The notes under the pieces are model-generated. The model was not told the DNA's origin. It ran no database searches and worked only from the letters and a program-made list of their open reading frames with translations. The translations under genes were made by a program, and so were the position numbers. A stretch of DNA of 64,000 nucleotides. Origin: a virus. Each line of letters begins with the position of its first letter. Position 1 is the first letter of the stretch. Location of the stretch: the IMG/VR virus record IMGVR_UViG_3300042391_001456, positions 1-64,000 of that record; one strand, given 5' to 3'. Below, piece after piece: positions 3,903 through 62,040 of the stretch.

Positions 3903-4685
3903 ATGAGAATTCTTAAATTTAATGAGAGTAAAAAAGAAAAAGATGTACAAGATGTAATTTTTGATATTAAATCATTAGAAAAAACTGATGATGATTTAAT
4001 CGGATTTGTAAGTGATTTCGAAGAAGTTAAAGACAGTGAAATAAAGAAAATTAAAAAAGAAATTCAAAATGACGGTGAGACACCTGGTTTGAAAAGGGCT
4101 ATCAAGAAATTTGAAGAATTTTCAGATGAGTTTATTAGTGATAATATTTCAGAGAATATTAAATATCATTTTGATAAATCACTTTCAGTTATTGAGAATA
4201 TTTTCAGACCTGGTTCAGATGAGTTTTTTAACTTATTGATAGAAGGTAGAAAGTTATTTGAAGCTAATAAATTTATTTTTAGTAAATTTGATAAGGAATT
4301 ATTTGAGAAAACAGACATTGGTAAATTTGGATATTTTAGAGGTCAATTAGTTCCATTAGATCTTCCAATGGAGATTATTGAGGAATTAAATGAGGCTGAA
4401 TATAAGGGTAGAGATGTTAAATTAAATAAACCTATGAGAAGTACAGGTCCTAAAAAGTATAAAGTTTATGTTAAAAATCCAAAGACTGATAGAGTTATGT
4501 GTGTTAACTTTGGAGATGTTAAGGGTGGCTTAAAATCAAAGTCTAGTAATGCTAAATCTAGAAAATCATTTGCTGCTAGACATAAATGTCATTTAAAGAA
4601 AGATAAAACTACTGCTGGGTATTGGTCATGTCGATTGAATAGATATAAAAATCTAGTTAAATCTGGAGGTGGTAAATATTGGTAG
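3903..4685 (+). CDS. Conserved phage protein; N-terminal MRILKFNES tag, basic C-terminal domain (KKYKVYV...NFGD...RKSFAARHKC...AGYWSCR)
   Basis: ORF with late promoter at about 3870; C-terminal motif familiar from large-phage hypotheticals. Confidence 0.7.
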   Translation: MRILKFNESKKEKDVQDVIFDIKSLEKTDDDLIGFVSDFEEVKDSEIKKIKKEIQNDGETPGLKRAIKKFEEFSDEFISDNISENIKYHFDKSLSVIENIFRPGSDEFFNLLIEGRKLFEANKFIFSKFDKELFEKTDIGKFGYFRGQLVPLDLPMEIIEELNEAEYKGRDVKLNKPMRSTGPKKYKVYVKNPKTDRVMCVNFGDVKGGLKSKSSNAKSRKSFAARHKCHLKKDKTTAGYWSCRLNRYKNLVKSGGGKYW

Positions 4686-4702
4686 AATAAAATAATTAGA
4701 TT

Positions 4703-4966
4703 ATGACACTTCCATTTAAAGAAACTAAAATAAGTGATAATGTATTTATAAGAGAGTTTAATCAAAATACAGATTCAGACGATTTTGTTTGGCATCTCGA
4801 TAGAGAAGATAGGATAATTGAATCTATTGGTGATACAGATTGGTTAATGCAATTGGATAATGAGCTTCCTAAGAAGATTGAAGGTGAGGTATTTATACCA
4901 ATGGGTATTTATCATCGTTTGATAAAGGGATCAAAAAATCTTAAAGTAAAGGTAATAAAGTTATAA
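4703..4966 (+). CDS. Small cupin-like protein
   Basis: WHLDRED...IPMGIYHRL two-His cupin-like pattern. Confidence 0.5.
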   Translation: MTLPFKETKISDNVFIREFNQNTDSDDFVWHLDREDRIIESIGDTDWLMQLDNELPKKIEGEVFIPMGIYHRLIKGSKNLKVKVIKL

Positions 4967-4975
4967 AAGTAGTAA

Positions 4976-5010
4976 AAAAATGAACCACTCAATTAGAGTG
5001 GTTCATTTTT
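4976..5010. terminator. Bidirectional intrinsic terminator
   Basis: AAAAATGAACCACTC-AATTA-GAGTGGTTCATTTTT between convergent genes. Confidence 0.85.
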
Positions 5011-6140
5011 TAATCAACTTTTGATTTATAATTATCACTATAAACTTTAATTATCTCATCATATTCATTTAAAACACCATTTTTAAAATCATCATTTTCA
5101 TATTTCTGTTTTATAATATATTCTTTGATATAACTTTCATATTCTAGTTTAATTGATATGTCTAATGTTTCTTCATCAATTTCTACTGCTTCTGATATAA
5201 TATCTTCACCATCTTCTCCTTTTTGTACAATATCATCTATGTATTCAACTGATGAAAAATTACCCTTCTCTAACATCATTTCTAATTTTCTTCTTAGTTT
5301 TCGATTGTTTATAAGTAGGTTATTTGAGATTGATATATCAATATAGTCTTTTGTATCGGATAATTCATCTAATTTATCAATATCTTCTTCTTTAATGACT
5401 TTGAACTTTCTAAATATCGGAGATATTTTATTTGGATAGAATATCTCTTTATCATTATTTGTGTCTATTACAAATATTCCTTTTTGATCCCCAGTATCAT
5501 TTCGATCCATTTGAAAAATAGATCCGACAAATGTAAAATTAGAATTACTTTGAACTAAGTGTATGTGTCCTGATCTAACCATTCTAAATGATCTAAAATC
5601 ATCTATATCAATCTTATCATTGTTTTTATGTGCGACTGATGTTAGGTGCATTTTACATCCGTTTAAATCAGAGTGACAAAATAAATAATCACAATTTTTA
5701 TTTTCGTTTATTATATTTACTTGTTCTGATTTTTTTTCAATATAAGGCATCATTAGAATTTTCAGATCATTATATTCTAAAATTGTTGGTTTATCATATA
5801 TTTTAACATTTGGTATGTATTTAAATGGTCTTACTGAATTTATTTCAGATGCACTTTTTGAATATAAGTCGTGGTTTCCTATTATTATGTGAAGAGGAGC
5901 TATTTTTGATATCTCTTCTACAATATCCATTCCGTAATTTAAAAGATTTATTGGAATAACATTTCTGTTATCAAATAAATCGCCTAAATGAACGATTATA
6001 TCACCGTCTTTTACTTCTTTTTTTAATAGTGGAATTAGAAATTCGGAAAAATATTGTTTGTGTATTTTATACCATTTATCAACTGAGTTTGGATAACCAA
6101 GACCTATATGTGAGTCTCCGATAAGAAAAATTTTACTCAT
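5010..6140 (-). CDS. Recombination endonuclease subunit, T4 gp47/SbcD/Mre11-like metallophosphoesterase
   Basis: GDSHIG, HLGDLFD, IGNHD, SGHIH motifs. Confidence 0.9.
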   Translation of the reverse strand: MSKIFLIGDSHIGLGYPNSVDKWYKIHKQYFSEFLIPLLKKEVKDGDIIVHLGDLFDNRNVIPINLLNYGMDIVEEISKIAPLHIIIGNHDLYSKSASEINSVRPFKYIPNVKIYDKPTILEYNDLKILMMPYIEKKSEQVNIINENKNCDYLFCHSDLNGCKMHLTSVAHKNNDKIDIDDFRSFRMVRSGHIHLVQSNSNFTFVGSIFQMDRNDTGDQKGIFVIDTNNDKEIFYPNKISPIFRKFKVIKEEDIDKLDELSDTKDYIDISISNNLLINNRKLRRKLEMMLEKGNFSSVEYIDDIVQKGEDGEDIISEAVEIDEETLDISIKLEYESYIKEYIIKQKYENDDFKNGVLNEYDEIIKVYSDNYKSKVD

Positions 6141-6314
6141 TCATAATTTATTATTTTTTATTTATATTATTTTAATTTATTTAAGTTGAAAAAGGAAAAA
6201 AATTAGTTTTTTAACTTAATATATACATATGAAAGTATAGAAAAAACAAGAGAAATAAATTAAAAAAATATATACTTTATAATTGGTAACAATTAAAAAA
6301 AAATAAAAAAAAAT

Positions 6315-10335: not shown

Positions 10336-12075
10336 ATGGCTTCTTATAATTATAGAAATAATAACAGTGGTGATGGAATGGGTTTTGTAAATTCCGCTGT
10401 TGAAAATAAAGGTCTTTTTAATAGAATACTTCGTAATTTATCCAATTATGGTATGAATTATGATGATATGATAATTAGAAACCAAGTTGGTGTCGGTATT
10501 AATGAAGATCCTTATAGTGCTAAGGGTGATTCAATGTATAATTTCTTTTCACAGAGAGCTGTTGCTTCTGTTTTGAATAGAAAATCTATTCCTTATTTAG
10601 ATAGATCTTATCCAGATAAAAGAAGAATATTAAGAGAATATTCTATTAAAGATGAAATTAGAGATTTTGTTAGTGCAATTGCAGATGAATCAATTGTGTA
10701 TAATGATACAAAAGATTTCTGTTCACCATCTCCTCTTTCAAATGATTATTCTAAGGAAATAACTGATAAGTATCAAGAATACTTTGAGAAAGTTTACAAT
10801 AAATTTGGATTTTCTGATAGTGTAACTGCTTATCAAATGATGAAAGATTTTCTAATCGATGGTTATCTTGCAATTGAATTAGTTTGGGATGATAAAAAGA
10901 AGAATATTATTGCTTTTAATAGATTAAGACCAGAGAGTATAGTTCCTGCTTATGAGCCAAATGTTGGACACTTATGGATTCAATTTCCGGAAGATCCTCA
11001 GTTAAGAAGAATATTTTTAGATTCACAAATTGTTTTTATATCCTATTCTTCTCAGAATGATTATTCAGAGACATCATATGTTGAGGGTTTGATTAAGCCT
11101 TATAATCAGTTAAAAATTCTAGAACAAACTAGAATTATGTTTAACATTATGAATGCGACAATTTATCAAAAATTCACTATTCCAATTAAAGGTATGTCTC
11201 GTCAAAAAGCCGAAGAACAAATAGGTCAATTGATACAGGATTACTCGGAAGAGATTGAATTTGATGAATCATTAGGTACTATTCAGGTTAATGGGGCTAA
11301 ACACATACCTTATAATAAACAAGTTTGGTTCCCAGAGGGTGATGCTGGTACGCCAAATATGGAATTAATGACTCCACAAGGACATGATTTAAATGAAGAG
11401 TCTATGTTAAAGTGGTTTCATCAAGCACTTAAAAGAGCTTCTAAAATACCAGTTACTAGGTTTGAAGCTGAGAGTGGTGGTGGTACATTTGTAGCAGATC
11501 AATCTGGATTAACTAATGATGAGGTTAAATTTCATAATTTTATTGGTAGATTAAGAGCTAATTTTAAAGAATTAATTGTTAAACCAATAAAATTGCAAAT
11601 GTTAGTTGAGTTTCCTGAACTTATTGAAGATGATGTTGTTATGAATGAAATAGATATTAATTTCAACTCTAATCAAATTTTTGAAGAATGGAAAAAAATA
11701 AATAACTTAGCAAAAAGAGCCGAGGCAATTGGTACATTGACTGGTATTATGAATGGTGATAAACCTTATTTTCATATTGAATGGATTATGGATCATGTGT
11801 TTAAATTGACACCGGAGGAAAAAGCAGAGAATCAAAAATACTGGGCAAAGGATAGTTCTGGTGTTGGTTCTGGTGGTGCTCAGGGTGGTGCTCAAGGTGG
11901 AATGGATATGGGTGCTCAAGGTGGTGCTCAAGGTGGAATGGATATGGGTGCTCAAGGTGGTGCTCAAGGTGGAATGGATATGGGTGCTCAGGGTGGTGCT
12001 CAAGGAGGTCAAGCGGCTCCTGAAACTCCACCAGCTCAAGGTGGTGCTCAAGGTGGTGCTGAATTTGAATTCTAA
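10336..12075 (+). CDS. Portal protein (T4 gp20-like) with Gly/Gln-rich C-terminal tail
   Basis: FLIDG, SYVE..IKPYNQLKILE, KAEEQI, ASKIPVTR, DEVKF..FI.RLR..F. Confidence 0.95.
   Translation: MASYNYRNNNSGDGMGFVNSAVENKGLFNRILRNLSNYGMNYDDMIIRNQVGVGINEDPYSAKGDSMYNFFSQRAVASVLNRKSIPYLDRSYPDKRRILREYSIKDEIRDFVSAIADESIVYNDTKDFCSPSPLSNDYSKEITDKYQEYFEKVYNKFGFSDSVTAYQMMKDFLIDGYLAIELVWDDKKKNIIAFNRLRPESIVPAYEPNVGHLWIQFPEDPQLRRIFLDSQIVFISYSSQNDYSETSYVEGLIKPYNQLKILEQTRIMFNIMNATIYQKFTIPIKGMSRQKAEEQIGQLIQDYSEEIEFDESLGTIQVNGAKHIPYNKQVWFPEGDAGTPNMELMTPQGHDLNEESMLKWFHQALKRASKIPVTRFEAESGGGTFVADQSGLTNDEVKFHNFIGRLRANFKELIVKPIKLQMLVEFPELIEDDVVMNEIDINFNSNQIFEEWKKINNLAKRAEAIGTLTGIMNGDKPYFHIEWIMDHVFKLTPEEKAENQKYWAKDSSGVGSGGAQGGAQGGMDMGAQGGAQGGMDMGAQGGAQGGMDMGAQGGAQGGQAAPETPPAQGGAQGGAEFEF
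11875..12060 (+). repeat. 36-bp tandem repeat x3 plus partial copies (GAQGGAQGGMDM) in the portal tail
   Basis: GGTGCTCARGGTGGTGCTCAAGGTGGAATGGATATG units at 11875, 11911, 11947. Confidence 0.95.
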
Positions 12076-17178: not shown

Positions 17179-19626
17179 ATGAAGTATATTGTTAATAGAG
17201 AAGTATTTATTCAAAGAAATATTTCTAAAAAGTTTGAAAAAACACCATATTCTGGTCATAATTTTCCTATATATGAAGAATATTCGGATGGTGGGAGTGG
17301 TAAACCAATGTTTAGTAATAATATTGGTTGGAACGATTCTTTATTGGGTCGTTTAATAAATCATATTATAAGAAAAGTTAAAGTAAAATTAGCATCTTTA
17401 GTTCAAATTCCAAAATTAATTAACCGACTTAATTCTGAATTTGAGAGAATTTATACCAATGGTTGTCTTATAGCTACCTATGATGCTGATATTAAGTATA
17501 AAATGGAGGTTATAAAATTAGAGTTTTATTCTTTTTTATTTGAAGTTAAAAATTCAATCGCTAATGGCGAAAGTGCTTCTATTATTAAATCTTTAGTTAA
17601 AAATGCTATTGGTAAGTTAAAAGAATCATCTGATGAGTTAGAAGATAAAGATAAAATGATACAGGAATTAGAGAAGTTTTTAGACTTTTTAGAGAATTAT
17701 AAAGATGATGAAAAAACTACAATCTCAACTGAGAATTCGGAGGCTTTTTCTGATAAATATAGTTTGTTAGTTTCTAATTTAACATATCTATCAAAAATTA
17801 TTGAGCAATATAAAAAGATAAATTTTGATTCACCATCTAATTCAAATGTTGATAGTAAAAAAGCGGTCAATCCAAATGTTAATGTTGGTGAAAAATCTAA
17901 GGTTGCTTCTATAGTTGATAGTTATCAATCATTTTGTGAGAATGTTATATCAAAAGAGCAAAATCATGCATTACAAGCATTTAAGAAATTAAAAATTCAA
18001 TGTCAAAATTTAGATAAAACATTGAAGGGATCAAAGGATCCAATTGTTAGCAATGTTGGGTTAAGTAAAGTAATATCCAATAAAGATAGTGAGGTTTATA
18101 AAAATTTTATAATAAAGTTATTTGTTGATATTGTTAAGAATATTTCCGGTAAAAATAAGACATTTACTATTCCTGCTAATAAATTGTATGAAAATTGGAA
18201 TTTTAGAATTGATAAACTAACGACTAGTGAATTTAGTTCAATATCTGATAAGATTTCAAAATTTGCTCATGTGGCTTTATTATTTAAAAAAGAAGAAGAG
18301 AACGGTAACTCACTTTACAATGAATATAATTTTGATGGTGTTGACTTTGGTAAAAACTTGAAGGGGTATGTTGATACTATGAGTCAGATAAAATCTCTAA
18401 AAGTTGGAAATAGTGAAGTTAATAATGAAGTTAAGGATAATTCGAACAATGATGAGATTTCTAAATATTTTGAAGATAATTGTAACACTGTATCTAAATT
18501 TGAGGTAGATGAAAAAATAATTGAAGAGTTAGAAGTTAAATTAAAAAATATAAATATTAAAAGAGGATTTATAATTGATGGATTTGATCCAATTATAGAG
18601 ATATTGAGAATTTTTAATCAGGCATATAAGTTATATATGACTCCAATTATCTCTAAAAGAAGTCAAAATTTAGATGGTTCTGCTGCTGGTCCTAGTCCAG
18701 GTACTCTCTTTGAGTATACCGATATGGGTGGTGGTAATAATGGTCCTTGGAGAAATAATGAAATTTTTGATAAATGGGAAGATGCTGTTTTTGATATTTT
18801 AGGTAATAGAAAATACCAAGTAATTTTCGATAAAGATACTTCATTGAGAGTTGGTGATGAAATTAGAGAAGGTAAAGGTCCATTGCTTAGAAAGTTTATG
18901 ACTGATTTATTAGATGGCTCTAAGTTATATGGTAAAGGTTCTTCTTCTGGTGATGGAGTGGGTGCTCAGAAAAATTTATTAGATAAATATTTTGATGAAG
19001 CACCAAAAGATGTTAGTGTTGAACCTACTGGTGGGAATGGTATTGTTGAGGCTAATGTTGAAATGCAACAAACAATAAATGAAAATTCTAAAAAAATAGA
19101 AATATTAAAATTAAATAGTCCTGGTCCGGTATATATTGATTCTCCAGGTACTTTCTTTATTATAGATGGATCTGACATTGATAAAAACATTAAAGTTCAA
19201 ATATTTGCTCATTATATTTCGGATGATAGAATATCATTTATAAGAAGCTTTGGACCTTGGAAAAAAGCAATAGATCCTATAGAGATAACTAAAAATGATT
19301 TAAATAATATGATTAATAAACCTTCTGCTGAGGGTGGCAATCCATATACTATATTCTATACTAATATTAAGAATTTTAAAAATGAGGTTCAATTAAATAA
19401 AGAAATGTCTATTAAATATACTTCTAAAGAAAAATACAATGAAAGTTATACATTAAATGTTAAAGTAAATGATATTTATAAAATTTGTATAAAAGAAGAA
19501 GATTTAAAGATATTAGACTTATCTAGTTCTTTTGATAAGGAGTATAAACAAAAATTTCAAAAATTAGGAGTAGATGTTCAATTTAAGCCAAAACCTGAAA
19601 ATAAAATTGTAAAATACACTAAATGA
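17179..19626 (+). CDS. Large late hypothetical protein, possible internal head protein
   Basis: 815-aa ORF, late promoter at about 17150, tag-like start MKYIVNREVF. Confidence 0.7.
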   Translation: MKYIVNREVFIQRNISKKFEKTPYSGHNFPIYEEYSDGGSGKPMFSNNIGWNDSLLGRLINHIIRKVKVKLASLVQIPKLINRLNSEFERIYTNGCLIATYDADIKYKMEVIKLEFYSFLFEVKNSIANGESASIIKSLVKNAIGKLKESSDELEDKDKMIQELEKFLDFLENYKDDEKTTISTENSEAFSDKYSLLVSNLTYLSKIIEQYKKINFDSPSNSNVDSKKAVNPNVNVGEKSKVASIVDSYQSFCENVISKEQNHALQAFKKLKIQCQNLDKTLKGSKDPIVSNVGLSKVISNKDSEVYKNFIIKLFVDIVKNISGKNKTFTIPANKLYENWNFRIDKLTTSEFSSISDKISKFAHVALLFKKEEENGNSLYNEYNFDGVDFGKNLKGYVDTMSQIKSLKVGNSEVNNEVKDNSNNDEISKYFEDNCNTVSKFEVDEKIIEELEVKLKNINIKRGFIIDGFDPIIEILRIFNQAYKLYMTPIISKRSQNLDGSAAGPSPGTLFEYTDMGGGNNGPWRNNEIFDKWEDAVFDILGNRKYQVIFDKDTSLRVGDEIREGKGPLLRKFMTDLLDGSKLYGKGSSSGDGVGAQKNLLDKYFDEAPKDVSVEPTGGNGIVEANVEMQQTINENSKKIEILKLNSPGPVYIDSPGTFFIIDGSDIDKNIKVQIFAHYISDDRISFIRSFGPWKKAIDPIEITKNDLNNMINKPSAEGGNPYTIFYTNIKNFKNEVQLNKEMSIKYTSKEKYNESYTLNVKVNDIYKICIKEEDLKILDLSSSFDKEYKQKFQKLGVDVQFKPKPENKIVKYTK

Positions 19627-20186
19627 GGTATTTAAAAAAATGGAATCTTTGGTTGGAAAATTTAGAAATTAAAGACTCTGATACATCTGATATTAAAAAA
19701 GCTAAAGAAAAATTGAATACTCTTAGATCACAAATAGATGAGTTCAATTCTAAATATAAAGAGATTGATATTGCTTATAAATCAAATGATGATAAAAAAA
19801 TATTAGACATGGAGAAAAAATTATTCGGTTCTACTGATATCAAAAATGGGGCTGATAGAAATGAATTTTTAGTTAAATATTTAAATATCGCTAAAAAGAA
19901 AAGACAAATAGATAAGGGTGTTAATCAAATAGCGACTGATAATCTAAATCTTCAGAAATCACAGGATATATTAAATATCGCGACTGATAAAGGTATTAAA
20001 GATCAGTATAATAAAGAAATACCAAAAATAAAACAAAAAATACAGAATACGAAAAATAGTATAGAAAAGAAAAAGGTTGATGTGTCTAATAGTTTTGAGG
20101 GAATTCAGAAAGAAATGTTGGAACGTGAGAAAGAAATGTTGAACTACATCAATCGGATAATAAAAGATTCAAATAGGGAGTATTAA
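19623..20186 (+). CDS. Coiled-coil protein with N-terminal tag (MRYLKKWNLWLE)
   Basis: ORF overlapping the upstream stop. Confidence 0.7.
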   Translation: MRYLKKWNLWLENLEIKDSDTSDIKKAKEKLNTLRSQIDEFNSKYKEIDIAYKSNDDKKILDMEKKLFGSTDIKNGADRNEFLVKYLNIAKKKRQIDKGVNQIATDNLNLQKSQDILNIATDKGIKDQYNKEIPKIKQKIQNTKNSIEKKKVDVSNSFEGIQKEMLEREKEMLNYINRIIKDSNREY

Positions 20187-45870: not shown

Positions 45871-46158
45871 ATGAAAATATTAAAATATTTAGATTTTATA
45901 AACGAATCGCTACCACGTCAACAATCAGTTGATCAGTTAAAACGTGTTATGAAACAATCATCAAAAACTGATATTGGTAATAGAATTTCTGATATGAATA
46001 AACAGGGAGCTAATATACAATATATTCAAAATCCAATTGATAATGGCATCGAATCTTTTGAGGATTGGCAAAAGCATAATAAGAAATTTGTTTCTTCTTG
46101 GAACTTAAAAGGAATGTTAGGACCATTTAAAGGTGAAGATAATAAGCAAAATAAATAA
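45871..46158 (+). CDS. Tagged small protein (MKILKYLDFINE)
   Basis: ORF. Confidence 0.75.
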   Translation: MKILKYLDFINESLPRQQSVDQLKRVMKQSSKTDIGNRISDMNKQGANIQYIQNPIDNGIESFEDWQKHNKKFVSSWNLKGMLGPFKGEDNKQNK

Positions 46159-46160: not shown

Positions 46161-46901
46161 ATGATTTTTTTAAAAAAATATTCAAATTTTATGAATAATG
46201 GAATAATAATAGCCATTGGAGGTTCTGAAAATGTTGTAGATAATACTATTTTATCAGAAGTTATAAAAAATTCAAAATTCAAAAAAAATTCAAAAATTAT
46301 AATAATCCCAACTGCATCATCCCATCAAGATGATGTCGATGTTAAATATAAAACAGCATTCGAGAAATTAGGGTGTAAGTATATAAAAACACTATTTATA
46401 TCATCTAAGGATCAAGTTGATTCAGAAGATAATTTGAATCTATTAAAAGAATCTAATATCTTAATGTTTTCTGGTGGTGATCAATCTAGAATAAGTGAAT
46501 GTTTTATAGGAACTAAATTTTTAGAAATTTTAATAAATAAATTTAATTCAGATCATTTTGTTGTAGCTGGTACTTCAGCCGGTGCTATGTGTTTATCTAA
46601 TAATATGATAACCGGTGGAGATAAAATTGTTAAATGTGGAGTGGGTTTATCATTTATTCCGGAACTAATAATAGATACTCATTTTACGGAAAGAAATAGA
46701 TTATCTAGATTATCTAATGCAATTTCAATCTATCCAAATAGAATTGGTGTTGGTTTATCTGAAGATACTGGAATTATTATAAAGAATAATGAAATAGAAG
46801 TTATTGGAACGGGTAGTGTTACTGTTTTTAATTTTGAGGATTTAAAAGAATTAAAATTTAAAGTTTTATATTCTGGTGATAAGTCAATTTTAAATAAATA
46901 A
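46161..46901 (+). CDS. Cyanophycinase-like S51 serine peptidase with a tag-like N-terminal extension
   Basis: IGGSE, IPTAS, SGGDQ, GTSAGAM, IDTHF.ER.RL.RL, GLSEDT. Confidence 0.88.
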   Translation: MIFLKKYSNFMNNGIIIAIGGSENVVDNTILSEVIKNSKFKKNSKIIIIPTASSHQDDVDVKYKTAFEKLGCKYIKTLFISSKDQVDSEDNLNLLKESNILMFSGGDQSRISECFIGTKFLEILINKFNSDHFVVAGTSAGAMCLSNNMITGGDKIVKCGVGLSFIPELIIDTHFTERNRLSRLSNAISIYPNRIGVGLSEDTGIIIKNNEIEVIGTGSVTVFNFEDLKELKFKVLYSGDKSILNK

Positions 46902-47028: not shown

Positions 47029-47352
47029 ATGAAATATTTAAAAACGTTTGAGAGTTATAGTGAGAAAGGTTTAGCTCAGGAAATTGCTGAAGACATTCTA
47101 CCAAAACTACAAGAAATTAAAAAAGAGAAAGGTATTTTTACAGTAGGTATGTTTGATAACTACATGGAAGAAAGAAAAGGTGATATGAAATTAACTGACG
47201 AAGTTATGTCTGAATTAGTTAATATGGGATTTGATTTTGATTCTGGTGATGATGATGATTTCTACTTTGTAGAAGATGACGAAGAAGGTGATGTTCCACC
47301 ACCTCCTCCTGGCTTCGAAGGTTATCCAGGGATGGAATATAGTTTAAACTAA
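47029..47352 (+). CDS. Tagged acidic protein (MKYLKTFESY)
   Basis: ORF. Confidence 0.8.
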   Translation: MKYLKTFESYSEKGLAQEIAEDILPKLQEIKKEKGIFTVGMFDNYMEERKGDMKLTDEVMSELVNMGFDFDSGDDDDFYFVEDDEEGDVPPPPPGFEGYPGMEYSLN

Positions 47353-47369: not shown

Positions 47370-47552
47370 ATGAAACATTTAAGAAAATTCAACGAAGCTG
47401 CTAAAGTTGAAAAAACATCTAAGAAAGATGAGATTGAAGACTTTATCAGTAAGAATAAGAAAAACAAATCTTCTTACGAAATGTATAAAGTATTAAGAGA
47501 AAAAGGTTATACTGAAGCCAATCTTAAAGATTATTTCTACGATAACTACTAA
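47370..47552 (+). CDS. Tagged small protein (MKHLRKFNEA)
   Basis: ORF, ATG at 47370. Confidence 0.75.
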   Translation: MKHLRKFNEAAKVEKTSKKDEIEDFISKNKKNKSSYEMYKVLREKGYTEANLKDYFYDNY

Positions 47553-49508: not shown

Positions 49509-50123
49509 ATGGATAATTTATTTAAAAGAGGTAGATCGTTAATTGATAAAGATATTGTTACTATTAAAGTGCCATTCATAAACTTTGATGGTAAAGAAGA
49601 TTTTGGTTTATTACAAGTACATAAAGATATTAGTGAAGAAGTTATTAATATCTTCAATGAGATAAAGAATATTGGTTTCCCAATTTTCAAAGTTGAAACC
49701 GTTGATAATTATGATTATGATGATGAGAAATTAGCTGATGGTAATATTACATCTAGTTATAATTTTAGATTTGTTAGTGGGTCTACTAAATTAAGTGATC
49801 ATTCTATTGGATTGGCAATTGATATAAATCCGATGCAGAATCCTTGGATACACATATCAGCATTGAATAAGTATATTTATAAACCAGGTGAAAAAGGAAC
49901 AATAGAGTCTTCTTCTGAAGTGGTGAATATTTTTAAGAAGTTTGGTTGGTCTTGGGGTGGTGATTGGAAAAATCCAGATTATCAACATTTTTTTAAAGGT
50001 GGTGATATTAATAAGAATATTAAGAACAAATTATATATTGATTTGGGAATTGATAATCCATATCAAAGTTCTAATAAGGTCTTTAATTTCAAAGACTTTA
50101 TCAAAAGTGTTATCAAACGTTAA
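49509..50123 (+). CDS. M15-family peptidoglycan peptidase with C-terminal tag-like KVFNFKDFIK
   Basis: YNFR...LSDHSIGLAIDINP..NP, WGGDW...DYQHF. Confidence 0.88.
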   Translation: MDNLFKRGRSLIDKDIVTIKVPFINFDGKEDFGLLQVHKDISEEVINIFNEIKNIGFPIFKVETVDNYDYDDEKLADGNITSSYNFRFVSGSTKLSDHSIGLAIDINPMQNPWIHISALNKYIYKPGEKGTIESSSEVVNIFKKFGWSWGGDWKNPDYQHFFKGGDINKNIKNKLYIDLGIDNPYQSSNKVFNFKDFIKSVIKR

Positions 50124-51589: not shown

Positions 51590-53713
51590 ATGAAACCAGT
51601 TTTAATTGTAGAAAATTCGACTAATTCCTTAATTAAGGAATCTGTAGCTAAGAACGATTATATATTAGGTGGTATTTTCACTGAATTCGGAGTTAAAAAC
51701 CGTAATGAAAGAATTTACACAGCTGATAAATTTCTTCCAGCTTTACAGGAGATGAATGAAAGAATGTCTGGATTAGGAGCCGTTTACGGTGAATTTGATC
51801 ATCCAGATGTTTTTGATACTTCATTATCAAGAGCTTCTCACATAATTACAAAAGCTAATTATGTTCAGGAATCTAATCACGTTGCTGGTGAAATCAGATT
51901 ATTAAGTACTTATTGGGGTAAAGAAGCTAAGGCGCTTGTCGATGACGGGTGTCCTGTTTTTGTTTCTTCTAGAGCAGCAGGTATTACTGAATCTGATGGA
52001 TCAGTATCTCTTAAAAAATTATTTACTTATGATATCGTTGCTGACCCTGGATTTGCATCTGCAAAGATGAGTGTTAAGGTCTTAAATGAGTCATTAGGTT
52101 ATGATAATCCACAATCTAACTTTAGGATATATGAAATGTCCGATGAGTCAAAAATAAATGATCTATTTAACATGAATAAAAATGAATTTGTTACCAAGCA
52201 ACAATTAACTGACTATTCTAAATATTTAGTTAATGAATTAGCTTCTACTAAAAAAGAAGTTAAAACTGCTATTTCTAAAGGTAATTTAACACCTAAGAAA
52301 TTAGAGCAACTACTTGAGTATTATGATGAGTTAAATACTACTAATACACAAGTTGTTAAGTATTTAGATTATTTAGCTGAAAAAGTTCAAATTATGGTTA
52401 ATGAGAATAAGTCTTTGAAAGAAACAACAGACAAACTTATTAAACACAATGACTATTTAGCTGAAAATCTTGAAAAAGCTGTTAATTACTCTGAGTATTT
52501 AGCTGAAAATTTAGATAAGAATATTGCTTATTCTGAATATGTAGCTGAGAACTTAGATAAAAACATCTCTTATTCTGAGTATATCGCTGAGAACTTAGAT
52601 AAAAATATTGCTTATTCTGAGTATATCGCTGAGAACTTAGATAAAAATATTGCTTATTCTGAGTATATCGCTGAGAACTTAGATAAAAATATTGCTTATT
52701 CTGAGTATATCGCTGAGAACTTAGATAAAAACATCGCTTATTCTGAGTATATCGCTGAGCACGTTGATAATAATATTGCGTATTCTGAATATTTAGCTGA
52801 GCACGTTGAGGGAAATATCGCTTATTCTGAGTATATCGCTGAGAATTTAGATGATAACATCGCTTATTCTGAGTATATCGCTGAGAATTTAGATAAATCT
52901 ATTTCTTACTCTGAAATGATTACTGAAACACTTAAGGGTGGTAAAGTATTCGAATCATATGAAAATTTCCCAACATTACAAGATGCTGGAATTTCAGCAA
53001 TTGAATCTGAAAAAGAAGAAGTTGAAGAAAGAGAAGAAGAAAGAGAAGATTTAGGTATCTCTCACATTTCAGACGAAAAAGAATATTACACAGAAGAAGA
53101 AAAAGAAGAAAATATTGAAAATTTAGAAGAAGAAAAAGAAGAAGAAGAAGATTGTACACCTGCTTATGAAGAAAAAACATTTAATGGTGATACTGATACT
53201 GAGCTGTCTTTATCTATCGATAAACTAATTGAGGAAGCTAAAAAACGTAAAGTTTCTGAAACATCAGATTTGAATTTCTTGAAATTCTTATCTAAATCAC
53301 AAGTTGATAGTTTTTATGCATTAACTAATGAAGAGCAAGAAACTGTTAAACTTCACATAAACGAAAGAAGTTACTTCACAGGAAAAGAAGTTCTTACATT
53401 AATTTCTGAAGCACTATCAACTAAAAATGAAACTCTTGAAGAAAGAGTTATCAGAATGATGCCTGAAAACACTAAGGCTATCTGGAATCAGTTAAATGAA
53501 TCTGCTAAAAAATCTTTCCTTTCACAGGCTAGATTATACCCAGAGGAAATGTTGATGACTGAATCACAAGTTGATCATTTCTGGGGAACTAGAAACATCA
53601 AAACAAATGAATCTGTAACTAAAAAATTAGTTTCTCATGATGCTTTAATTCAAGAAGATAAATTATCTGATAATGAAGTTAGTGCTATTATGGAAAGGTT
53701 CAAAAATATTTAA
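51590..53713 (+). CDS. Prohead protease (T4 gp21-like) fused to a scaffold/core region
   Basis: KNRNERIY, GEFDHP, SH.I, VSSRAAG, TYDIVADPGF; then coiled-coil repeats and an acidic linker; directly upstream of the capsid gene. Confidence 0.93.
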   Translation: MKPVLIVENSTNSLIKESVAKNDYILGGIFTEFGVKNRNERIYTADKFLPALQEMNERMSGLGAVYGEFDHPDVFDTSLSRASHIITKANYVQESNHVAGEIRLLSTYWGKEAKALVDDGCPVFVSSRAAGITESDGSVSLKKLFTYDIVADPGFASAKMSVKVLNESLGYDNPQSNFRIYEMSDESKINDLFNMNKNEFVTKQQLTDYSKYLVNELASTKKEVKTAISKGNLTPKKLEQLLEYYDELNTTNTQVVKYLDYLAEKVQIMVNENKSLKETTDKLIKHNDYLAENLEKAVNYSEYLAENLDKNIAYSEYVAENLDKNISYSEYIAENLDKNIAYSEYIAENLDKNIAYSEYIAENLDKNIAYSEYIAENLDKNIAYSEYIAEHVDNNIAYSEYLAEHVEGNIAYSEYIAENLDDNIAYSEYIAENLDKSISYSEMITETLKGGKVFESYENFPTLQDAGISAIESEKEEVEEREEEREDLGISHISDEKEYYTEEEKEENIENLEEEKEEEEDCTPAYEEKTFNGDTDTELSLSIDKLIEEAKKRKVSETSDLNFLKFLSKSQVDSFYALTNEEQETVKLHINERSYFTGKEVLTLISEALSTKNETLEERVIRMMPENTKAIWNQLNESAKKSFLSQARLYPEEMLMTESQVDHFWGTRNIKTNESVTKKLVSHDALIQEDKLSDNEVSAIMERFKNI
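52445..52927 (+). repeat. 42-bp (14-aa) in-frame tandem repeat YSEYIAENLDKNIA, 10 full copies plus 2 degenerate
   Basis: Units start at 52487 and step by 42 to 52907. Confidence 0.97.
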
Positions 53714-53797: not shown

Positions 53798-55489
53798 ATG
53801 TCACACATTAGAATAGACAATGCGAAAGCAACTAAGAAATGGGCTCCAGTTTTAGAAAACATGGGAGTAACTGGTGATAGAGTTGAATGGATGGCTGAAT
53901 ATGCTGAGTTTCACTCTATTAACGAAAATGCGTATGTAAACGCTGCAAACGTAGCAGGTATGGGAGCTATAACAGCTGCACAACCAGGATTATATGCTGG
54001 TACTACTACAACTGCTGCTCAAGGTACATATGGTCCTTTATCAGGTTCAGGAGACGTAGGTCAAAACCTTTTACCAGTAGCTATGAAAATTGCTGCTCAA
54101 ACAATCGGTTTAGATTTAGTAGCAGTTAAACCAACTCCAGGTCCGAAAATCGATTTACTTTATGTAGATTTCGTTTATGATGACGTTGATCAATTACAAA
54201 ACGAAAGACCACAAGTATTTAAATTAGCAAGTGTTAACGAAACTTTGGTAAATAACTTAACTAATTTGGTTAAAGCTGAAGGTAGATTAGTAACTGGTGG
54301 TATCAGTGGTACTAGAGTTTTTGTTGGTATTACACAATCTAACGCATTTAGCGCAACTTCAGAATCTTCGTTCCCAGCAACTGGAAAAGCAGGTGTTGTT
54401 GAATTTTTAGGTTTCTCAAGAATTGATGGATATCCAATGTTTAAAGCTTATAGACAAGCTAATACAGGTGGTCAATTTAACTACTTCTCATTTGATTCAA
54501 AATTAAATACATTTGACTCATCTAGTGCTATGTCTGCTCAGATTAAAACAATCGCTGGATATACTTTCTCAGCTGCTCCTTCAATTGAATTAGTATCTGC
54601 ATTAGAAGATCATATCCCAGGTTTCTCTGCAAACTGGACAGGAGCAAAAGCATCTGGTGATTATCCAATGGATCGTTACTCTGATGATACATCTTATTCA
54701 GGTGTTATCGGACCAAAAATCTCTTCTAAAACTATCGCAGTTGGTACTATCGAAGTATCTTCAGCTTTAAGAAGAACTGAAATCGAAGATATTAAAGCTA
54801 ACACTGGTATGGATATCGTTCAAAAAATGGAATCTATCCTTGTTAATGAATTATCTCAAACAATTTCTAAACAAATCGTTGCTAAGATTTTTGAAATGGG
54901 TGAATTAAACAGAAAAAGTAGTGCTCCTTTAAGATCAGGTGTTTCTTCTTTCGTTTCTGCTTCTGCTTCAACTATCTTTGACTTGAACACTAATTATGCG
55001 TCTACTTCAGTTTCTGGTGAAACTACTCACGCTGTTCAAAGAAAATTGATTACTAAAATTGCACACGCTTCTAACTTCATCGCTACTGAAGGTCGTGTAG
55101 GACCAGCTCAATACATCATTACAAATGGAGGTTTAGCTGCAGCACTTCAAGATATCGCTGGTTATACTATTAACCCAGTTAAATCTAAATTAAACGGACA
55201 AGGTCAATTATACCCTGTAGGTTCAATCGGAGATATTTCTATCTATGTTGATCCATACATGAAGTATAATGATAACAGAATCGTTTTAGGAAGAAAAAAC
55301 AACGCTGATCAACCAGGTATCATTTTCGTACCTTATTTAATGGCACAATCTATCTCAGTTATTTCTGAAGCGACTTTCGCTCCAAGAATGTTACTAAGAT
55401 CAAGATATGCAGTTGCTGAAGTTGGATGGTATCCACAAAAACAATTTATGACGATTGTTGTTGAAGATGCAAATCAATTATTAAACTAA
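53798..55489 (+). CDS. Major capsid protein (T4 gp23-like)
   Basis: KKWAPVLE, DLVAVKP..GP, YVDPY, FVPY, TFAPR....SRY. Confidence 0.95.
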   Translation: MSHIRIDNAKATKKWAPVLENMGVTGDRVEWMAEYAEFHSINENAYVNAANVAGMGAITAAQPGLYAGTTTTAAQGTYGPLSGSGDVGQNLLPVAMKIAAQTIGLDLVAVKPTPGPKIDLLYVDFVYDDVDQLQNERPQVFKLASVNETLVNNLTNLVKAEGRLVTGGISGTRVFVGITQSNAFSATSESSFPATGKAGVVEFLGFSRIDGYPMFKAYRQANTGGQFNYFSFDSKLNTFDSSSAMSAQIKTIAGYTFSAAPSIELVSALEDHIPGFSANWTGAKASGDYPMDRYSDDTSYSGVIGPKISSKTIAVGTIEVSSALRRTEIEDIKANTGMDIVQKMESILVNELSQTISKQIVAKIFEMGELNRKSSAPLRSGVSSFVSASASTIFDLNTNYASTSVSGETTHAVQRKLITKIAHASNFIATEGRVGPAQYIITNGGLAAALQDIAGYTINPVKSKLNGQGQLYPVGSIGDISIYVDPYMKYNDNRIVLGRKNNADQPGIIFVPYLMAQSISVISEATFAPRMLLRSRYAVAEVGWYPQKQFMTIVVEDANQLLN

Positions 55490-55972: not shown

Positions 55973-56590
55973 ATGATTAAAAAATATATCGAATATATTA
56001 AAGAGAATGTTACACCCAAAAGTGATGTAGCTGAGCTCAATGGAAATGGACTAGATGTTAAACACAAAACATTAATTGATATTAATAATCCTGATATGAA
56101 ATATGATATTTATTGGGGTAGAAATGCAAAAACTAATGATTATTTAACAACTAATTTTTCTGGTAAATTTGCCAGACAAATTGGTGGTAATTTACCTAGT
56201 GAAAATGATATTTGGATGCATATAACAAGTTCTTTAAATAAAGAACATTTTTATAAGACTAAATCTGGTGATGTTTTTGAGGGAGATAAACCTGAAAGAA
56301 GAGTTGTTGGAACACATTTAATAATAAAAACTCTGAAAGATGATAAAGTTCCAGAAAATATTATCTTACAATCTGCTGATATAGTTAGAAAAAATAGTCA
56401 TTTAGAAATTATCACAGAAGAAGGAAAAAAGAGAATAGTTGCTACCGACTTAGAAAATTGTGATATAGTTTTTTGTAAAAAGAATTATGTTAGTAAAAAA
56501 CCAGGTAGTGTATTAGGTCAAGTTCAAGTTGAACACTCAAACGCTAGATACATTCAATATACAAAGGGAAATATAAATATTAAAAATTAA
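55973..56590 (+). CDS. NFACT-R (DUF814) RNA-binding domain protein with tag (MIKKYIEYIKE)
   Basis: I..GRNA..ND.LT...DIWMH...G.H.II...PG...G.V. Confidence 0.75.
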   Translation: MIKKYIEYIKENVTPKSDVAELNGNGLDVKHKTLIDINNPDMKYDIYWGRNAKTNDYLTTNFSGKFARQIGGNLPSENDIWMHITSSLNKEHFYKTKSGDVFEGDKPERRVVGTHLIIKTLKDDKVPENIILQSADIVRKNSHLEIITEEGKKRIVATDLENCDIVFCKKNYVSKKPGSVLGQVQVEHSNARYIQYTKGNINIKN

Positions 56591-56616: not shown

Positions 56617-58452
56617 ATGGCAGAAGAAACAAATCTACCAAAAATAAAAATATCTAAAGAATTAGCATCGGTATTACAAAAAACTGAAGACTTAGGTGAT
56701 TATATCTCATTTGAAATAATTTGTATGGGTGATGATGATAGTGAGCATTTTAATGGTTTAAAAATTACAGATGTGAATGTTTCAAAAAAAGATTTTTGTT
56801 TTGAAGTAACTACATTAGATGGTAAGAAAATGGATATGAAGTGTGGTAATTTCATTAGATACTACTTTCATAACTATTTTACACCAAGTGATATTCAAAA
56901 CTTCGTAAACCTTTATAATAAAGTTAAAAATGGTGAGTCAGTGGCTGATGAAAAAATTCCAATCAATGTTTCAAAGTTTGAATATAATCCGTTAGATCCG
57001 AGATCTACTTTTCTTTCACTTGTTACTAAAACATATCCACATGGACACGAAGATGAAGTTCTTCAATTCTTACCACAATTGGATAAAGATATCGTTGGAA
57101 ACTATTACAAAATAATTGGAGATAATCCAACAACAATGTTTACATGTCATTTAGATACTGCTGATAGAAAACAGGCTGTTACAAGACTTTATTCTATACA
57201 AGTTGATGATCAAGAACATATTGTTACCGATGGTACAACTGTATTAGGAGCTGATGATAAATCAGGAACAACAGTTATGTTATATATGATGGCAAAAAAT
57301 GTACCAGGTCTTTATTACTTCTTTATCGGAGAAGAAAGGGGTGGTATTGGATCTAGAGCTTTAGCTGATAAATATGATGAAGTTTCTTATTTAAAAAATA
57401 TTAAAAGATGTGTTTCTTTTGATAGAAGAAAGACTATTTCAGTTATCACCTCACAAGCAGGTGGTGTTTGTTGTTCTGATGAATTTGCAAATGCTCTTTG
57501 TGATGAGTATAATAAAAATGGATTAAATCTTAAACCAGACCCAACTGGAGTATTTACTGATTCGGCTTCATTCATTGATGATATTTCAGAATGTACAAAT
57601 GTTTCTGTTGGATATCTTAACGAACATACTGGTAAAGAAATTCAAAATATGGATTATTTAATAGATTTATGTAAAGCATCTGTTAATGTTAATTGGGATT
57701 CATTACCAACTGTTAGAACTGTTCAAGATAGAGCAGCTATGAAAGAAATGATTAATAGAGTAAAATCTTCAAATAAAGAATTTGTTGATTCGTTAAAAGG
57801 TGTTAATTTGGATAAAACTATTTCCACAGATTATGGAAATGTATATGTTAATTTTGATTTAGATAATGAGTCTCTTGATAACATCATTGAAAGTTTAACA
57901 GAGTTGAGAAAGGTAATGAGATTACACAAAAAGCCAGCTTCTTGTTTATTCGATGAAACTTATTTACAAATATTTTTAGGTAAAGAAAGTGGTCAAAAAA
58001 TAACAACACTTGATATTGAAGATGATGATAAATATGAGTCTCAAAAATTAAAAAAATATGAACAATTTTTAACTGAAAAATACTGGGATGATGAAGATGG
58101 TCAAGATGAAGATGAAGAAGATAACGATAAAGAACAAGATATAGAACATCTTAAATATCTTTTAAGGCAAATGTTGACTAAAGCAGGTATTAAGAATTCT
58201 ACAATAACTAATAATGGATTGAATTTAAAAATTCAAATTATTCCACCATCGTATGGGATGATTGACTATTTTTATAAATTAGATGATATTATACACATCT
58301 ATGAAACAATTAAAAAGTTTGATAAAGATATTTTAGTTGATTTTGATTTAGAGTGTGATATTTGGGAAACTAAAAAAATAGAACCTCTTTTAATTTTCAA
58401 TTTCTATTCTAACCAAGATGATTATGAAGATGAATCTGGTTTACCATTTTAA
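56617..58452 (+). CDS. M28/M20-like zinc peptidase with internal tag (KLKKYEQFLTE) and an extra C-terminal domain
   Basis: CHLDT, LGADDKSG, GEERG..GS, SFDR, TDS, N.SVGY..EHT. Confidence 0.85.
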   Translation: MAEETNLPKIKISKELASVLQKTEDLGDYISFEIICMGDDDSEHFNGLKITDVNVSKKDFCFEVTTLDGKKMDMKCGNFIRYYFHNYFTPSDIQNFVNLYNKVKNGESVADEKIPINVSKFEYNPLDPRSTFLSLVTKTYPHGHEDEVLQFLPQLDKDIVGNYYKIIGDNPTTMFTCHLDTADRKQAVTRLYSIQVDDQEHIVTDGTTVLGADDKSGTTVMLYMMAKNVPGLYYFFIGEERGGIGSRALADKYDEVSYLKNIKRCVSFDRRKTISVITSQAGGVCCSDEFANALCDEYNKNGLNLKPDPTGVFTDSASFIDDISECTNVSVGYLNEHTGKEIQNMDYLIDLCKASVNVNWDSLPTVRTVQDRAAMKEMINRVKSSNKEFVDSLKGVNLDKTISTDYGNVYVNFDLDNESLDNIIESLTELRKVMRLHKKPASCLFDETYLQIFLGKESGQKITTLDIEDDDKYESQKLKKYEQFLTEKYWDDEDGQDEDEEDNDKEQDIEHLKYLLRQMLTKAGIKNSTITNNGLNLKIQIIPPSYGMIDYFYKLDDIIHIYETIKKFDKDILVDFDLECDIWETKKIEPLLIFNFYSNQDDYEDESGLPF

Positions 58453-60476: not shown

Positions 60477-60479
60477 TTT

Positions 60480-61169
60480 ATGTATAGTGATTTAATAAAA
60501 GGAGTTAATGAATTATTAAGTATTGATACAAGAGACTTTTTAATTTTAGATGATACTATAACATCTAATAAGAATACTGTAAGTATTTCTGTTCATCTCA
60601 CAGCAAACGATTCAAATATAGAACAATTTGTTAGTCATGTTAAATATGAAGTTTTTAGAACTTTATATAAGTACATCTTTAAACAGATGAAATTTAATAA
60701 TAAATTTATTGATTTGAGAAATCTTAAATTTACTGAGAAATTAAATAGGACTAGTTTATTTTTATCTCAATTTAAATATAAAAACATATTGAGTAATAGT
60801 AGAATATCGACTGAACTACAAGATTCATTATCTTTTCATTTTTCTAAAATGAAACCAAATACATCCAGTGATATTTATGAAATAGGTAAGTATTTAGATT
60901 TTGAAGCTTATGTTGATCCATATCTTAGATATAGTGATGAAGAGATTTATTTATTTAATGATATACGATTTAATATAAATAACTTTCAATATGATGTTAT
61001 CAGTGAAGCAACTTTTACACCAAGATTGATGATTACTTATGATTTTTATTTTGAAATATTTGATAATGAAATAGTTTATATCATAGATGATGAGTTTCAA
61101 AAATCATTACCAATTCTATTATCTCAAATTAGAGACGAAAAAATAGATAAACTTATAAATGGCAATTAA
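60480..61169 (+). CDS. Truncated, degenerate major-capsid-protein paralog with C-terminal RDxK tag
   Basis: YEIG...YVDPYLRYSD..I.L and VISEATFTPRLMI match capsid YPVG...YVDPYMKYND..I.L and VISEATFAPRMLL; ends IRDEKIDKLINGN. Confidence 0.85.
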   Translation: MYSDLIKGVNELLSIDTRDFLILDDTITSNKNTVSISVHLTANDSNIEQFVSHVKYEVFRTLYKYIFKQMKFNNKFIDLRNLKFTEKLNRTSLFLSQFKYKNILSNSRISTELQDSLSFHFSKMKPNTSSDIYEIGKYLDFEAYVDPYLRYSDEEIYLFNDIRFNINNFQYDVISEATFTPRLMITYDFYFEIFDNEIVYIIDDEFQKSLPILLSQIRDEKIDKLINGN

Positions 61170-61419
61170 TCCACCAAATCCATTTCTTGTTAATTCATCG
61201 ACTAATCAGTCAATTCCACTTCTTATCAATTCATCGACTGGTGAATCGGCACTTATAGTTGACTCGGATGGTAATGTTATAGTTAAGAAATTAGTTTTAT
61301 TGGATGATAAAACTGGAAAGAAATGGGAGGTAAAAATTTCTGATGGTGAAATTTACATGGAGCCTCTTGAAAAATCTGATAAAAGAGATTTTAAAATAAA
61401 AAAGATTTTAAATGACTAA
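61159..61419 (+). CDS. Small protein with C-terminal RDxK tag (KRDFKIKKILND)
   Basis: ORF overlapping both neighbours. Confidence 0.75.
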   Translation: MAINPPNPFLVNSSTNQSIPLLINSSTGESALIVDSDGNVIVKKLVLLDDKTGKKWEVKISDGEIYMEPLEKSDKRDFKIKKILND

Positions 61420-61735
61420 ACACTTAGATAGAATATACAAAATGGGATTTATTGTAACATTAGATTGGAATATGTGTTTTACGATAACTTTACCACACTA
61501 TCATTCTCCAAATTTTGGTCATGAGTGTAATGTTTTAGTCTGTCAATTTGATGATACGATCATAAATATAAAATTTTCAGAGGTTGTTGAATATTGCTGT
61601 GATATTTTTTATGAATGGTATAATGAATATGTTCATATAATAGATGATACAACTCCAGAAGAGTTTAGTAAAATAACTTTAGGTAACATAACAACTCGTG
61701 TTAATAGAGACTTAAAATTAGATAAACTACTATAA
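61412..61735 (+). CDS. Small protein with C-terminal RDxK tag (NRDLKLDKLL)
   Basis: ORF followed by a bidirectional terminator at about 61738-61766. Confidence 0.75.
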   Translation: MTKHLDRIYKMGFIVTLDWNMCFTITLPHYHSPNFGHECNVLVCQFDDTIINIKFSEVVEYCCDIFYEWYNEYVHIIDDTTPEEFSKITLGNITTRVNRDLKLDKLL

Positions 61736-61767
61736 ACAAAAAGAGAGTCAAATGACTCTCTTTTTGT

Positions 61768-62040
61768 TTATCTTAATTTGTTAGTCCAATTACCAATTTT
61801 CCTTTGGGTAGTTAAATCTTTCATAGCTCCAAAATTAGCTGTTGGTTTATTCCAATCTATTAGTTTTCCATTCATGTGTGTTAACATAGGATCAGTACCT
61901 CTATATAAATCCATTACTTTTCTATTAGCATCATCTATATCATCTGCTTCAATTTCTACCACTTCATCATTTTTATTTAGAAGAGTGTAAGTATAAGTAT
62001 TTGACTCATTAAAATTAGTCCAATTTTTAATTTTATTCAT
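61768..62040 (-). CDS. Tagged small protein (MNKIKNWTNFNES)
   Basis: Start moved to ATG 62040. Confidence 0.7.
   Translation of the reverse strand: MNKIKNWTNFNESNTYTYTLLNKNDEVVEIEADDIDDANRKVMDLYRGTDPMLTHMNGKLIDWNKPTANFGAMKDLTTQRKIGNWTNKLR

Follow-up and report, generated by a model that had tools for sequence, protein, structure and literature searches.

A short portable peptide at the termini of unrelated proteins encoded on an uncultured phage contig: a candidate T4-style prohead-targeting and cleavage signal

The stretch of DNA considered here (the window) comprises the first 64 kb of one viral contig of 102,753 bp, IMG/VR record IMGVR_UViG_3300042391_001456, with a G+C content of about 27%. 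Greedy calling placed 117 genes on the whole contig, and all counts of tagged genes given below refer to these. Several otherwise unrelated proteins of this phage carry variants of one short peptide, here called the tag. It is a conserved, portable module of about 8–13 residues that lies outside the folded body of the protein, most often at the N-terminus, and closes as a rule with hydrophobic-x-Glu and then a small or polar residue. The nearest relatives at both DNA and protein level are three genomes deposited as 'uncultured phage' (460–735 kb), LR756502.1, LR745206.1, and LR756501.1, whose major capsid proteins (MCP) are 70%, 68%, and 50% identical to that of this phage, respectively.

The tagged genes form two tandem clusters, 34039-36540 and 44622-47552, and lie on the plus strand unless stated otherwise; scores in bits are those of the held-out model described below. 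The first cluster carries the dominant form of the tag, class A (M-K-Y-L-K-x-F-E-x-F). It begins with 34039..34638 (MKYVRTFESY, 13.8 bits), whose orthologues keep the tag, and continues with 34708..34935 (MKYLKLFEGF, 75 residues, 15.0 bits), which has a TAATATATA box 4 nt upstream, with 34939..35406 (MKHLKLFENF, 155 residues, 17.2 bits), in place of which the related locus L081 has an untagged gene of 172 residues, and with 35417..35908 (MKFIKLFENF, 163 residues, 15.5 bits). At its end lies 35905..36540 (MRYLKTFESH), the body of which is provisionally likened to cysteine hydrolases and isochorismatases. The second cluster includes 44622..45866 (class B2, MDIIKFSKFNEN), an orphan of 414 residues, 45871..46158 (class B, MKILKYLDFINES), the closest of the tags to the capsid-targeting sequence (CTS) of phage T4, and 46161..46901, a peptidase of family S51 with the weak tag-like start MIFLKKYSNF (4.1 bits) and a Pfam domain from residue 16. 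It also includes 47029..47352 (class A, MKYLKTFESY, 107 residues, acidic, 16.8 bits) and 47370..47552 (class B2, MKHLRKFNEA, 60 residues, 8.5 bits). Outside the clusters are 3903..4685 (class B2, MRILKFNES), which has a second copy, KKFEEF, at residue 68; 19623..20186 (MRYLKKWNLWLEN, 12.8 bits), immediately upstream of the tail sheath gene; 55973..56590 (class B, MIKKYIEYIKEN); and, on the minus strand, 61768..62040, with a weak or shifted tag, MNKIKNWTNFNES (1.1 bits).

A strict class-A motif, M-[KR]-[YFHIL]-[LIVM]-[KR]-x-[FWY]-[ENDS]-[ESNGA]-[FYHW], is present at six of the 117 gene starts (34039, 34708, 34939, 35417, 35905, and 47029). All six also fit the narrower form M-[KR]-[YHF]-[LIV]-[KR]-x-F-E-x-[FYH]. 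It matches none of 626 off-frame ATG open reading frames (ORFs), none of 556 in-frame internal methionines, and next to nothing in 20,000 composition-matched simulated sets of N-termini, so that the motif is rarer on control or simulated AT-rich starts than on real ones (0/1,182 control ATGs against 6/117). As this expression was written with the data already seen, a held-out position weight matrix was trained in a two-component model, for which each of 281 families having no member on the contig supplied one N-terminus. The unsupervised model regained the consensus M-K-Y-[IL]-K-[LK]-F-E-x-[FY]; its mixture membership is noisy, and it served only as a held-out scorer. At 12 bits or more it picks out seven of the 117 real starts, namely the six strict ones and 19623, against three of the 1,182 controls. 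Two register-shifted classes add to these. Class B, [FYW]-x-[EDNKQS]-[FYW]-[ILVF]-x-E (the K-Y-L-D-F-I-N-E type), is found at three N-termini (45871, 55973, and 95268) where at most 0.7 are expected, and class B2, [KR]-x?-[FYW]-N-E-[SNA] (the K-F-N-E-S type), at another three (3903, 44622, and 47370) with 0.04 expected. Seven held-out matches plus three genes each of classes B and B2 thus give about 13 of 117 genes (11%) that are tagged with good support.

An earlier model-made reading of the letters (the sequence-only reading) had listed 18 instances of the motif, and all 18 exist, the one at 62040 belonging to the minus-strand gene 61768-62040. Among the 14 that it placed at N-termini, 46161 and 62040 are weak, and the four positions that it gave for internal copies (28670, 36558, 49509, and 56617) are gene starts, the motifs lying further in. 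Its claim that the tag joins otherwise unrelated proteins is upheld by six to seven class-A and six class-B or B2 genes of the 117, between the bodies of which BLAST finds no similarity. The description of the tag as 'genome-wide' stands for the contig and for the closest complete relative, which has 21 copies; it extends to these two because only 102.7 kb of the genome itself is to hand. The start of 7981-8277 and its orthologues is likewise conserved, M-N-K-V-[IL]-x-Q-[IFL]-W-E-[EN]-S, with Gln in place of Lys and Trp in place of Phe. It may be a further variant of the tag, one left unscored by the anchored model.

The tag is not restricted to N-termini, and the position independence claimed earlier is borne out by C-terminal copies that are conserved in orthologues. 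The class-A copy KIIKTFESF (29471..29497) occupies residues 268-276 of the 281 encoded by 28670-29515, five residues before the end, and the orthologues finish with [LI]-I-[KR]-T-F-E-[SR]-F and about five residues. Similarly, the class-B copy DFISFINE (36726..36749) covers residues 57-64 of 69 in the product of 36558-36767, and its 12 orthologues end in D-F-[IL]-x-F-[ILV]-N-E and about five residues. A weak C-terminal KVFNFKDF (50076..50099), residues 190-197 of 204 in the M15_4 peptidase 49509-50123, has no Glu and is unconfirmed. Moreover, the codons vary both synonymously and across families: Lys and Arg are written AAA, AAG, AGA, or AGG, Leu is written TTA, CTA, or TTG, one gene has TCA for Ser9 where others have AGT, and the Phe and Glu codons differ as well. 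Selection on the tag works at the level of the peptide, not of the nucleotides.

The portability of the tag is most evident in the family of 35905, for which 1,221 homologues were collected. In 118 of them (64–98% identity) the first eight residues, M-[RK]-Y-L-K-T-F-E, hardly vary; a variable linker fills positions 9-12, and the body then begins with K-D-I-L-I-I-V-D-V-Q. An exhaustive search of cluster representatives found the same body in several forms. It stands untagged, starting from residue 3, in at least 25 representatives, mostly long multidomain proteins, and elsewhere follows a short tag, of which at least four classes occur (MKYLKTFESF, MKKYLEFINE, MITTI-x-EFK-x-FEA, and P-L-F-E-[EQ]-[FY]). 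It also lies behind N-terminal regions of 140–450 residues with a junction [ILFY]-N-E-S 6–9 residues upstream of the body, and these fusion proteins start with a class-A tag themselves. The claim of portability is therefore confirmed, as one body is found untagged, with different tags, or behind internal junctions. An AlphaFold2 (AF2) model of 35905, built on a 40-sequence alignment, has a predicted local distance difference test (pLDDT) score of 89.5; the fold opens with the strand 14-19, and only residues 1-10 score below 50, for which reason the tag is predicted to be a flexible appendage outside the fold. Two untagged relatives, P0200 (920 residues) and P0201 (551 residues), are chains of modules with regular Glu-ending junctions, P-K-[TK]-F-[IV]-Y-E in the former and R-T-L-E-K in the latter, and look like polyproteins with cut sites of their own. 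P0172 consists of a 35905-type body with the C-terminal domain of 3903 (phrog_7595) joined on after it, and domains thus appear to be shuffled among tagged proteins. No viral-contig relative of P0180 was found among the related loci.

Other families behave alike. Orthologues of 55973 share one body and carry different tag variants. The M28-like gene 56617-58452 bears an internal class-B copy, KLKKYEQFLTE (58045..58077, residues 477-487 of 611), after which come an acidic linker and a C-terminal domain. Members of the same family begin with the tag M-K-L-K-K-Y-N-N-Y-L-N-E, and because the internal sequence is nearly the same, 56617 may have arisen by fusion with a tagged ORF that was once separate. 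Its paralogue on the contig, 81618-82778, is 50% identical over about 240 residues; beyond this, 56617 has a 130-residue N-terminal domain and the C-terminal extension past the internal tag. In orthologous tag clusters the tag is kept with conservative substitutions while gene content shifts through swaps, losses, and insertions of HNH endonuclease genes. HNH-like endonuclease genes sit inside the cluster in two relatives (L084:4925-5605 and L091:7301-7990). A degenerate DNA pattern for the class-A start has 21 copies in the 642-kb relative LR756502.1 (one for a reversed-pattern control) and none in LR756501.1, Lak-B5, PTm1, or T4. In its exact form the class-A tag is confined to the clade; relatives further away presumably rely on different tags.

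A morphogenesis module of the T4 type lies in the window. Its head genes include a portal of the gp20 type at 10336..12075 (plus strand; PF07230, 3e-57), a 707-residue 'head maturation protease' at 51590..53713 (plus strand), which is gp21-like and fused to a scaffold-like C-terminal half, and an MCP of the gp23 type at 53798..55489 (plus strand; PF07068, 2e-28). The gp21-like domain spans residues ~20-170 of the protease ORF. Profile searches linked the MCP to gp23 at E 1.7e-4 and the protease to gp21 at only E 0.65, so the N-terminal ~170 residues of the latter were compared by hhalign with the real T4 gp21, which gave a probability of 89.6% (E 1.9e-6, 143 columns). The aligned blocks set GEFDH71P against T4 GELNHP and FVSS126-127RAAG against T4 GVSSRGLG, and H71, S126/127, and D148 are invariant among 13 relatives. 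The catalytic triad of gp21 is His/Ser/Asp (PMC5694885). Searching the Protein Data Bank with the single sequences of the protease and the MCP gave no match. On the strength of these matches, the genome encodes a gp21-family protease together with a T4-type portal and MCP, and the comparison with the T4 CTS, drawn in the sequence-only reading, rests on homology and not on analogy alone.

The scaffold-like half of the protease ORF contains a tandem array (52486..52914, plus strand) of a CTS-like unit, NLDKNIAYSEYIAE, that has a 42-nt period (10.2 copies by Tandem Repeats Finder, 11 regex matches) and encodes N-L-D-K-N-I-A-Y-S-E-Y-I-A-E, ending in I-A-E. Its core Y-S-E-Y-I-A-E is identical at five of seven positions to the CTS core of T4 IPII and IPIII in the T4 record, Y-Q-E-F-I-A-E. 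Among 80 related loci, 75 contain such an array. After it comes an element with a core of class-A type, K-V-F-E-S-Y (52943..52960, plus strand; in full context G-G-K-V-F-E-S-Y-E-N-F), which takes the form K-[LIV]-[FN]-E-[SN] in the 61 loci where it can be classified. The MCP begins with a conserved block, W-M-(S/A)-E-Y-A-E-x-H-x-[IM]-N-E-N, of which [IM]-N-E-N is invariant, and a variable linker, an arrangement that resembles the propeptide of T4 gp23 and makes E43 a candidate cleavage point. The real T4 core proteins have S-I-N-E-N in gp68 and S-I-F-E-S and E-L-F-E-S in gp22. Tags of classes B and B2 end in I-N-E, I-K-E, I-T-E, or F-N-E, and those of class A in L-F-E (three genes) or T-F-E (three genes). 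Given the motifs shared by the scaffold array and post-repeat element, the MCP block, and the tags, the sites expected of a gp21-type enzyme appear to recur in all three.

The explanation that is moderately favoured regards the tag as a T4-style prohead-targeting signal combined with a gp21-type cut site, greatly expanded and placed at N-termini, at C-termini, and at junctions within proteins. During prohead assembly the tag would dock its protein onto the scaffold core, as the CTS does in T4. The protease would then cut after the Glu, which would remove a tag at the N-terminus, shorten one at the C-terminus, or release fused modules from each other. Inside the head the bodies would remain beside the DNA, and some of them at least would reach the host at infection. 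The cargo would correspond to about 13 of the 117 contig genes, mostly small orphans along with a cysteine-hydrolase-like enzyme and probably peptidases. A wider proposal is put forward only tentatively, as somewhat doubtful: in this clade of huge phages the T4 principle would have become a general address code, in which several interchangeable tags, resembling the repeat unit and the terminal element of the phage's own protease-scaffold fusion, would load dozens of unrelated proteins per genome, including enzymes and Glu-cut polyproteins, for delivery to the host, and the injected proteome of uncultured phages would be predictable from sequence alone.

Several points weigh against this account. 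Docking, cleavage, head retention, and injection are inferred across a clade without a close cultured relative; the closest cultured phages, Chryseobacterium MA9V-1/2, the Lak phages, Tenacibaculum PTm1, and Sphingomonas PAU, share 26–32% MCP identity. The open literature yielded no virion proteomics of cultured relatives, and the GenBank record of PTm1 flags no virion proteins. The protease remains under the gathering score of Pfam S77 (PF03420; 23.8 versus 27 bits, E 3.4e-5), and the AF2 model of its domain is poor (pLDDT 54), for which reason it was kept out of the fold search. Its specificity is read from conserved sites in the phage's own scaffold and MCP, and half of the class-A tags have Thr at P3 (T-F-E), not the Leu or Ile expected of gp21. 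The association of the tag with promoters discriminates weakly. Additionally, the type of tag (F-E or N-E) does not co-vary with the type of the scaffold post-repeat element (F or N) over 61 loci (odds ratio 1.3, p 0.55), and mimicry of the scaffold is thus unsupported by co-variation.

The last result also suits an alternative in which the motif is a processing site only, with a Glu-specific protease (the gp21-like enzyme or a different one) stripping terminal peptides or splitting polyproteins, for example to activate enzymes, and no capsid targeting; the proteins need not then be packaged. Hydrophobic-x-E-[SNA] just before the body is indeed what every tag class and fusion junction shares, and there are long multi-module proteins with regular Glu-ending junctions. 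On the other hand, gp21-type proteases work inside the prohead (PMC5694885), so that a substrate would have to be there to be cut; M-K-Y-L-K, well upstream, is conserved equally with the cut site, which suggests a role beyond P3–P1; and the loss of eight residues outside the fold has no obvious activating effect. This alternative is considered unlikely. Docking onto something else than the capsid, for instance a chaperone of the phage or of the host, a host AAA+ protease that reads the tag as a degron, or some other intracellular address, appears rather improbable as well. N-terminal Met-basic-hydrophobic degrons are known for ClpXP, and many kinds of linear motif typically take the form of a short, conserved, disordered peptide at the terminus of unrelated proteins. 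Such docking, however, leaves unexplained both the likeness of the tag to the scaffold repeat, the post-repeat element, and the MCP propeptide site and the Glu-ending fusion junctions. Nor does the tag qualify as a Sec or lipoprotein signal peptide: on inspection of the sequence it has no hydrophobic core of at least seven residues, hence no secretion signal, and alternates charged and aromatic residues before polar linkers.

Explanations outside protein function fare worse. The shared start could reflect an AT-rich, unstructured 5' coding region of leaderless mRNAs or of mRNAs lacking a Shine-Dalgarno sequence, or a recombination cassette of promoter and first codons, and several tagged genes do begin 4–5 nt past a TAATATATA box, which suggests leaderless mRNAs, with AT-rich codons. 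The codon variation within and across families speaks against it, as do operon-internal tagged genes without the box and the lack of any match among the off-frame AT-rich ATG ORFs. Because the peptide is conserved far from start codons, at C-termini and internally, this explanation is largely refuted and deemed very improbable. It is hardly credible, too, that the tagged genes are one fast-evolving paralogous family recognisable only at the N-terminus. The two tandem clusters would fit such an origin, but the bodies lack BLAST similarity, belong to different families (cysteine-hydrolase-like, S51, M28-like), and in one case occur both tagged and untagged and with different tags. Chance or AT bias as the origin of the tag was rejected, the motif being all but absent from control ATGs and simulations.

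From the list of enzymes in the sequence-only reading, the S51 (46161), M15_4 (49509), and M28-like (56617) peptidases have family support, whereas the nuclease-like, NFACT-R, and HAD assignments have none; the three peptidases bear the weakest or non-N-terminal motifs. The label 'isochorismatase-like' for 35905 is plausible, not established. A weak fold match and a conserved D-K-C pattern argue for it, and the body has no Pfam or PHROG match. Foldseek searches with the model placed nicotinamidase, cysteine hydrolase, and isochorismatase structures on top with probabilities up to 0.99, but at E ≥ 0.01 and with TM scores of 0.4–0.5; within the family D20 and K90 are invariant and C180 nearly so. 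The product of 34039-34638 has, in common with its orthologues (L081-L094), a Q/A/P-rich low-complexity repeat and a strongly acidic tail that always ends in E-E-L-P-x. By analogy with gp67, the acidic prohead core protein of T4, it may be a core component rather than cargo.

The promoters add little. The TAATATATA box is a real intergenic element (31 of 38 copies), at about 4–5 or 16–24 nt from the ATG, and its core AATATATA lies upstream of the portal, sheath, protease, and MCP genes. Boxes ending 4–5 nt before the ATG include 34692-34707, 35401-35416, 44606-44621, 48732-48747, and 55606-55621; if TAATAT is the -10 element, this spacing would make the mRNAs leaderless or nearly so. The proposed link between tag and late promoters holds only loosely. 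Tagged genes show no enrichment for a direct TAATATATA or relaxed box within 60 nt (p 0.45), and under the relaxed definition box-led units contain all tagged genes but also 76% of the untagged ones (p 0.04). The box-led genes are presumably late.

The T4-type module further comprises genes for a sheath protein of 1,840 residues (20249-25771), the large terminase (30379-32517), and gp32 (50463-51443). The window also has a homing endonuclease gene at 25872-27557 (phrog_3339). The large terminase of one relative (L087:825-4627) is interrupted by an inserted ORF of 328 residues. The portal ends (11850-12075) in a low-complexity repeat, about three copies of GAQGG-M-D-M, with a terminal A-E-F-E-F; T4 gp20 has no such repeat. 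The 523-nt intergenic region 58453-58975 starts with GGGGGCG and finishes with a T-arm-like hairpin and CGCTTCC-A. Its ends could pair as a 7-bp acceptor stem with G3:U, as in transfer-messenger RNA (tmRNA), and neither ARAGORN nor Rfam (at gathering and at E ≤ 1) called a tmRNA there.

No published description of such a tag was found in the searchable literature. Should the prohead-loading account be true, sequence alone would suffice to list the packaged and possibly injected proteins of uncultured huge phages. Such a list would lead directly to candidate proteins for first-wave host takeover and anti-defence, which here are mostly orphans, and the tags would provide natural short packaging tags for Bacteroidota-type phages. 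Furthermore, the T4 CTS, well studied but small in extent, would be one extreme of a much larger system whose scaffold, protease sites, and cargo tags have a single short motif in common.

The T4 system is the closest known counterpart. The CTS of T4 (on IPI, IPII, and IPIII, with short propeptides on Alt and gp24, all cut by gp21) is also an N-terminal peptide of about ten residues on unrelated proteins; it ends in hydrophobic-x-Glu, as the tags generally do, and it too operates alongside a gp20 portal, a gp23 MCP, and a gp21-type protease. Internal proteins of T-even phages are diverse and have nothing but a CTS in common (PMC3012670); here, likewise, the candidate cargo genes are diverse, occupy variable clusters, and retain the tag alone. 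In T4, Alt is processed at its two ends, at ITE-6 and LTE-619 (PMC5694885). The CTS core Y-Q-E-F-I-A-E is resembled by class-B tags (K-Y-L-D-F-I-N-E) and by the scaffold repeat (Y-S-E-Y-I-A-E), which fit Y-x-[ED]-[FY]-I-x-E, whereas the dominant class A is not a T4 sequence and shares only M-K and Phe7 with MKTYQEFIAE, and its DNA pattern is absent from T4. The scale differs as well: about 11% of the contig genes and 21 class-A copies in the 642-kb relative compare with a handful in T4. Several tag classes are used at once, conserved copies occur at C-termini and at fusion-protein junctions, and some bodies are enzyme-like. In addition, protease and scaffold form a single protein in this phage, the scaffold being built of about 11 CTS-like repeats, unlike the separate gp21 and gp22 of T4.

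Phages of the phiKZ/SPN3US type provide a second comparison. In these, many head proteins are cut after Glu by a gp21-related protease (S80), and their propeptides are presumed to steer them into the prohead (PMC5694885). Most of these propeptides exceed 100 residues; their motif is S/A/G-x-E, and they have no short tag in common. The tags described here show neither feature: they are about 8–13 residues long, have L, I, F, M, or T at P3, and accompany head genes of the T4 type. Among cultured phages, Tenacibaculum phage PTm1 also has a fused protease-scaffold ORF (BBI90692.1, 'prohead core scaffolding protein and protease') beside a gp23-type MCP. The PTm1 MCP, about 31% identical over 56% of the protein, carries a homologous propeptide block, WMSEM-LTINE-N. 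PTm1 differs in having another scaffold repeat and no class-A tags.

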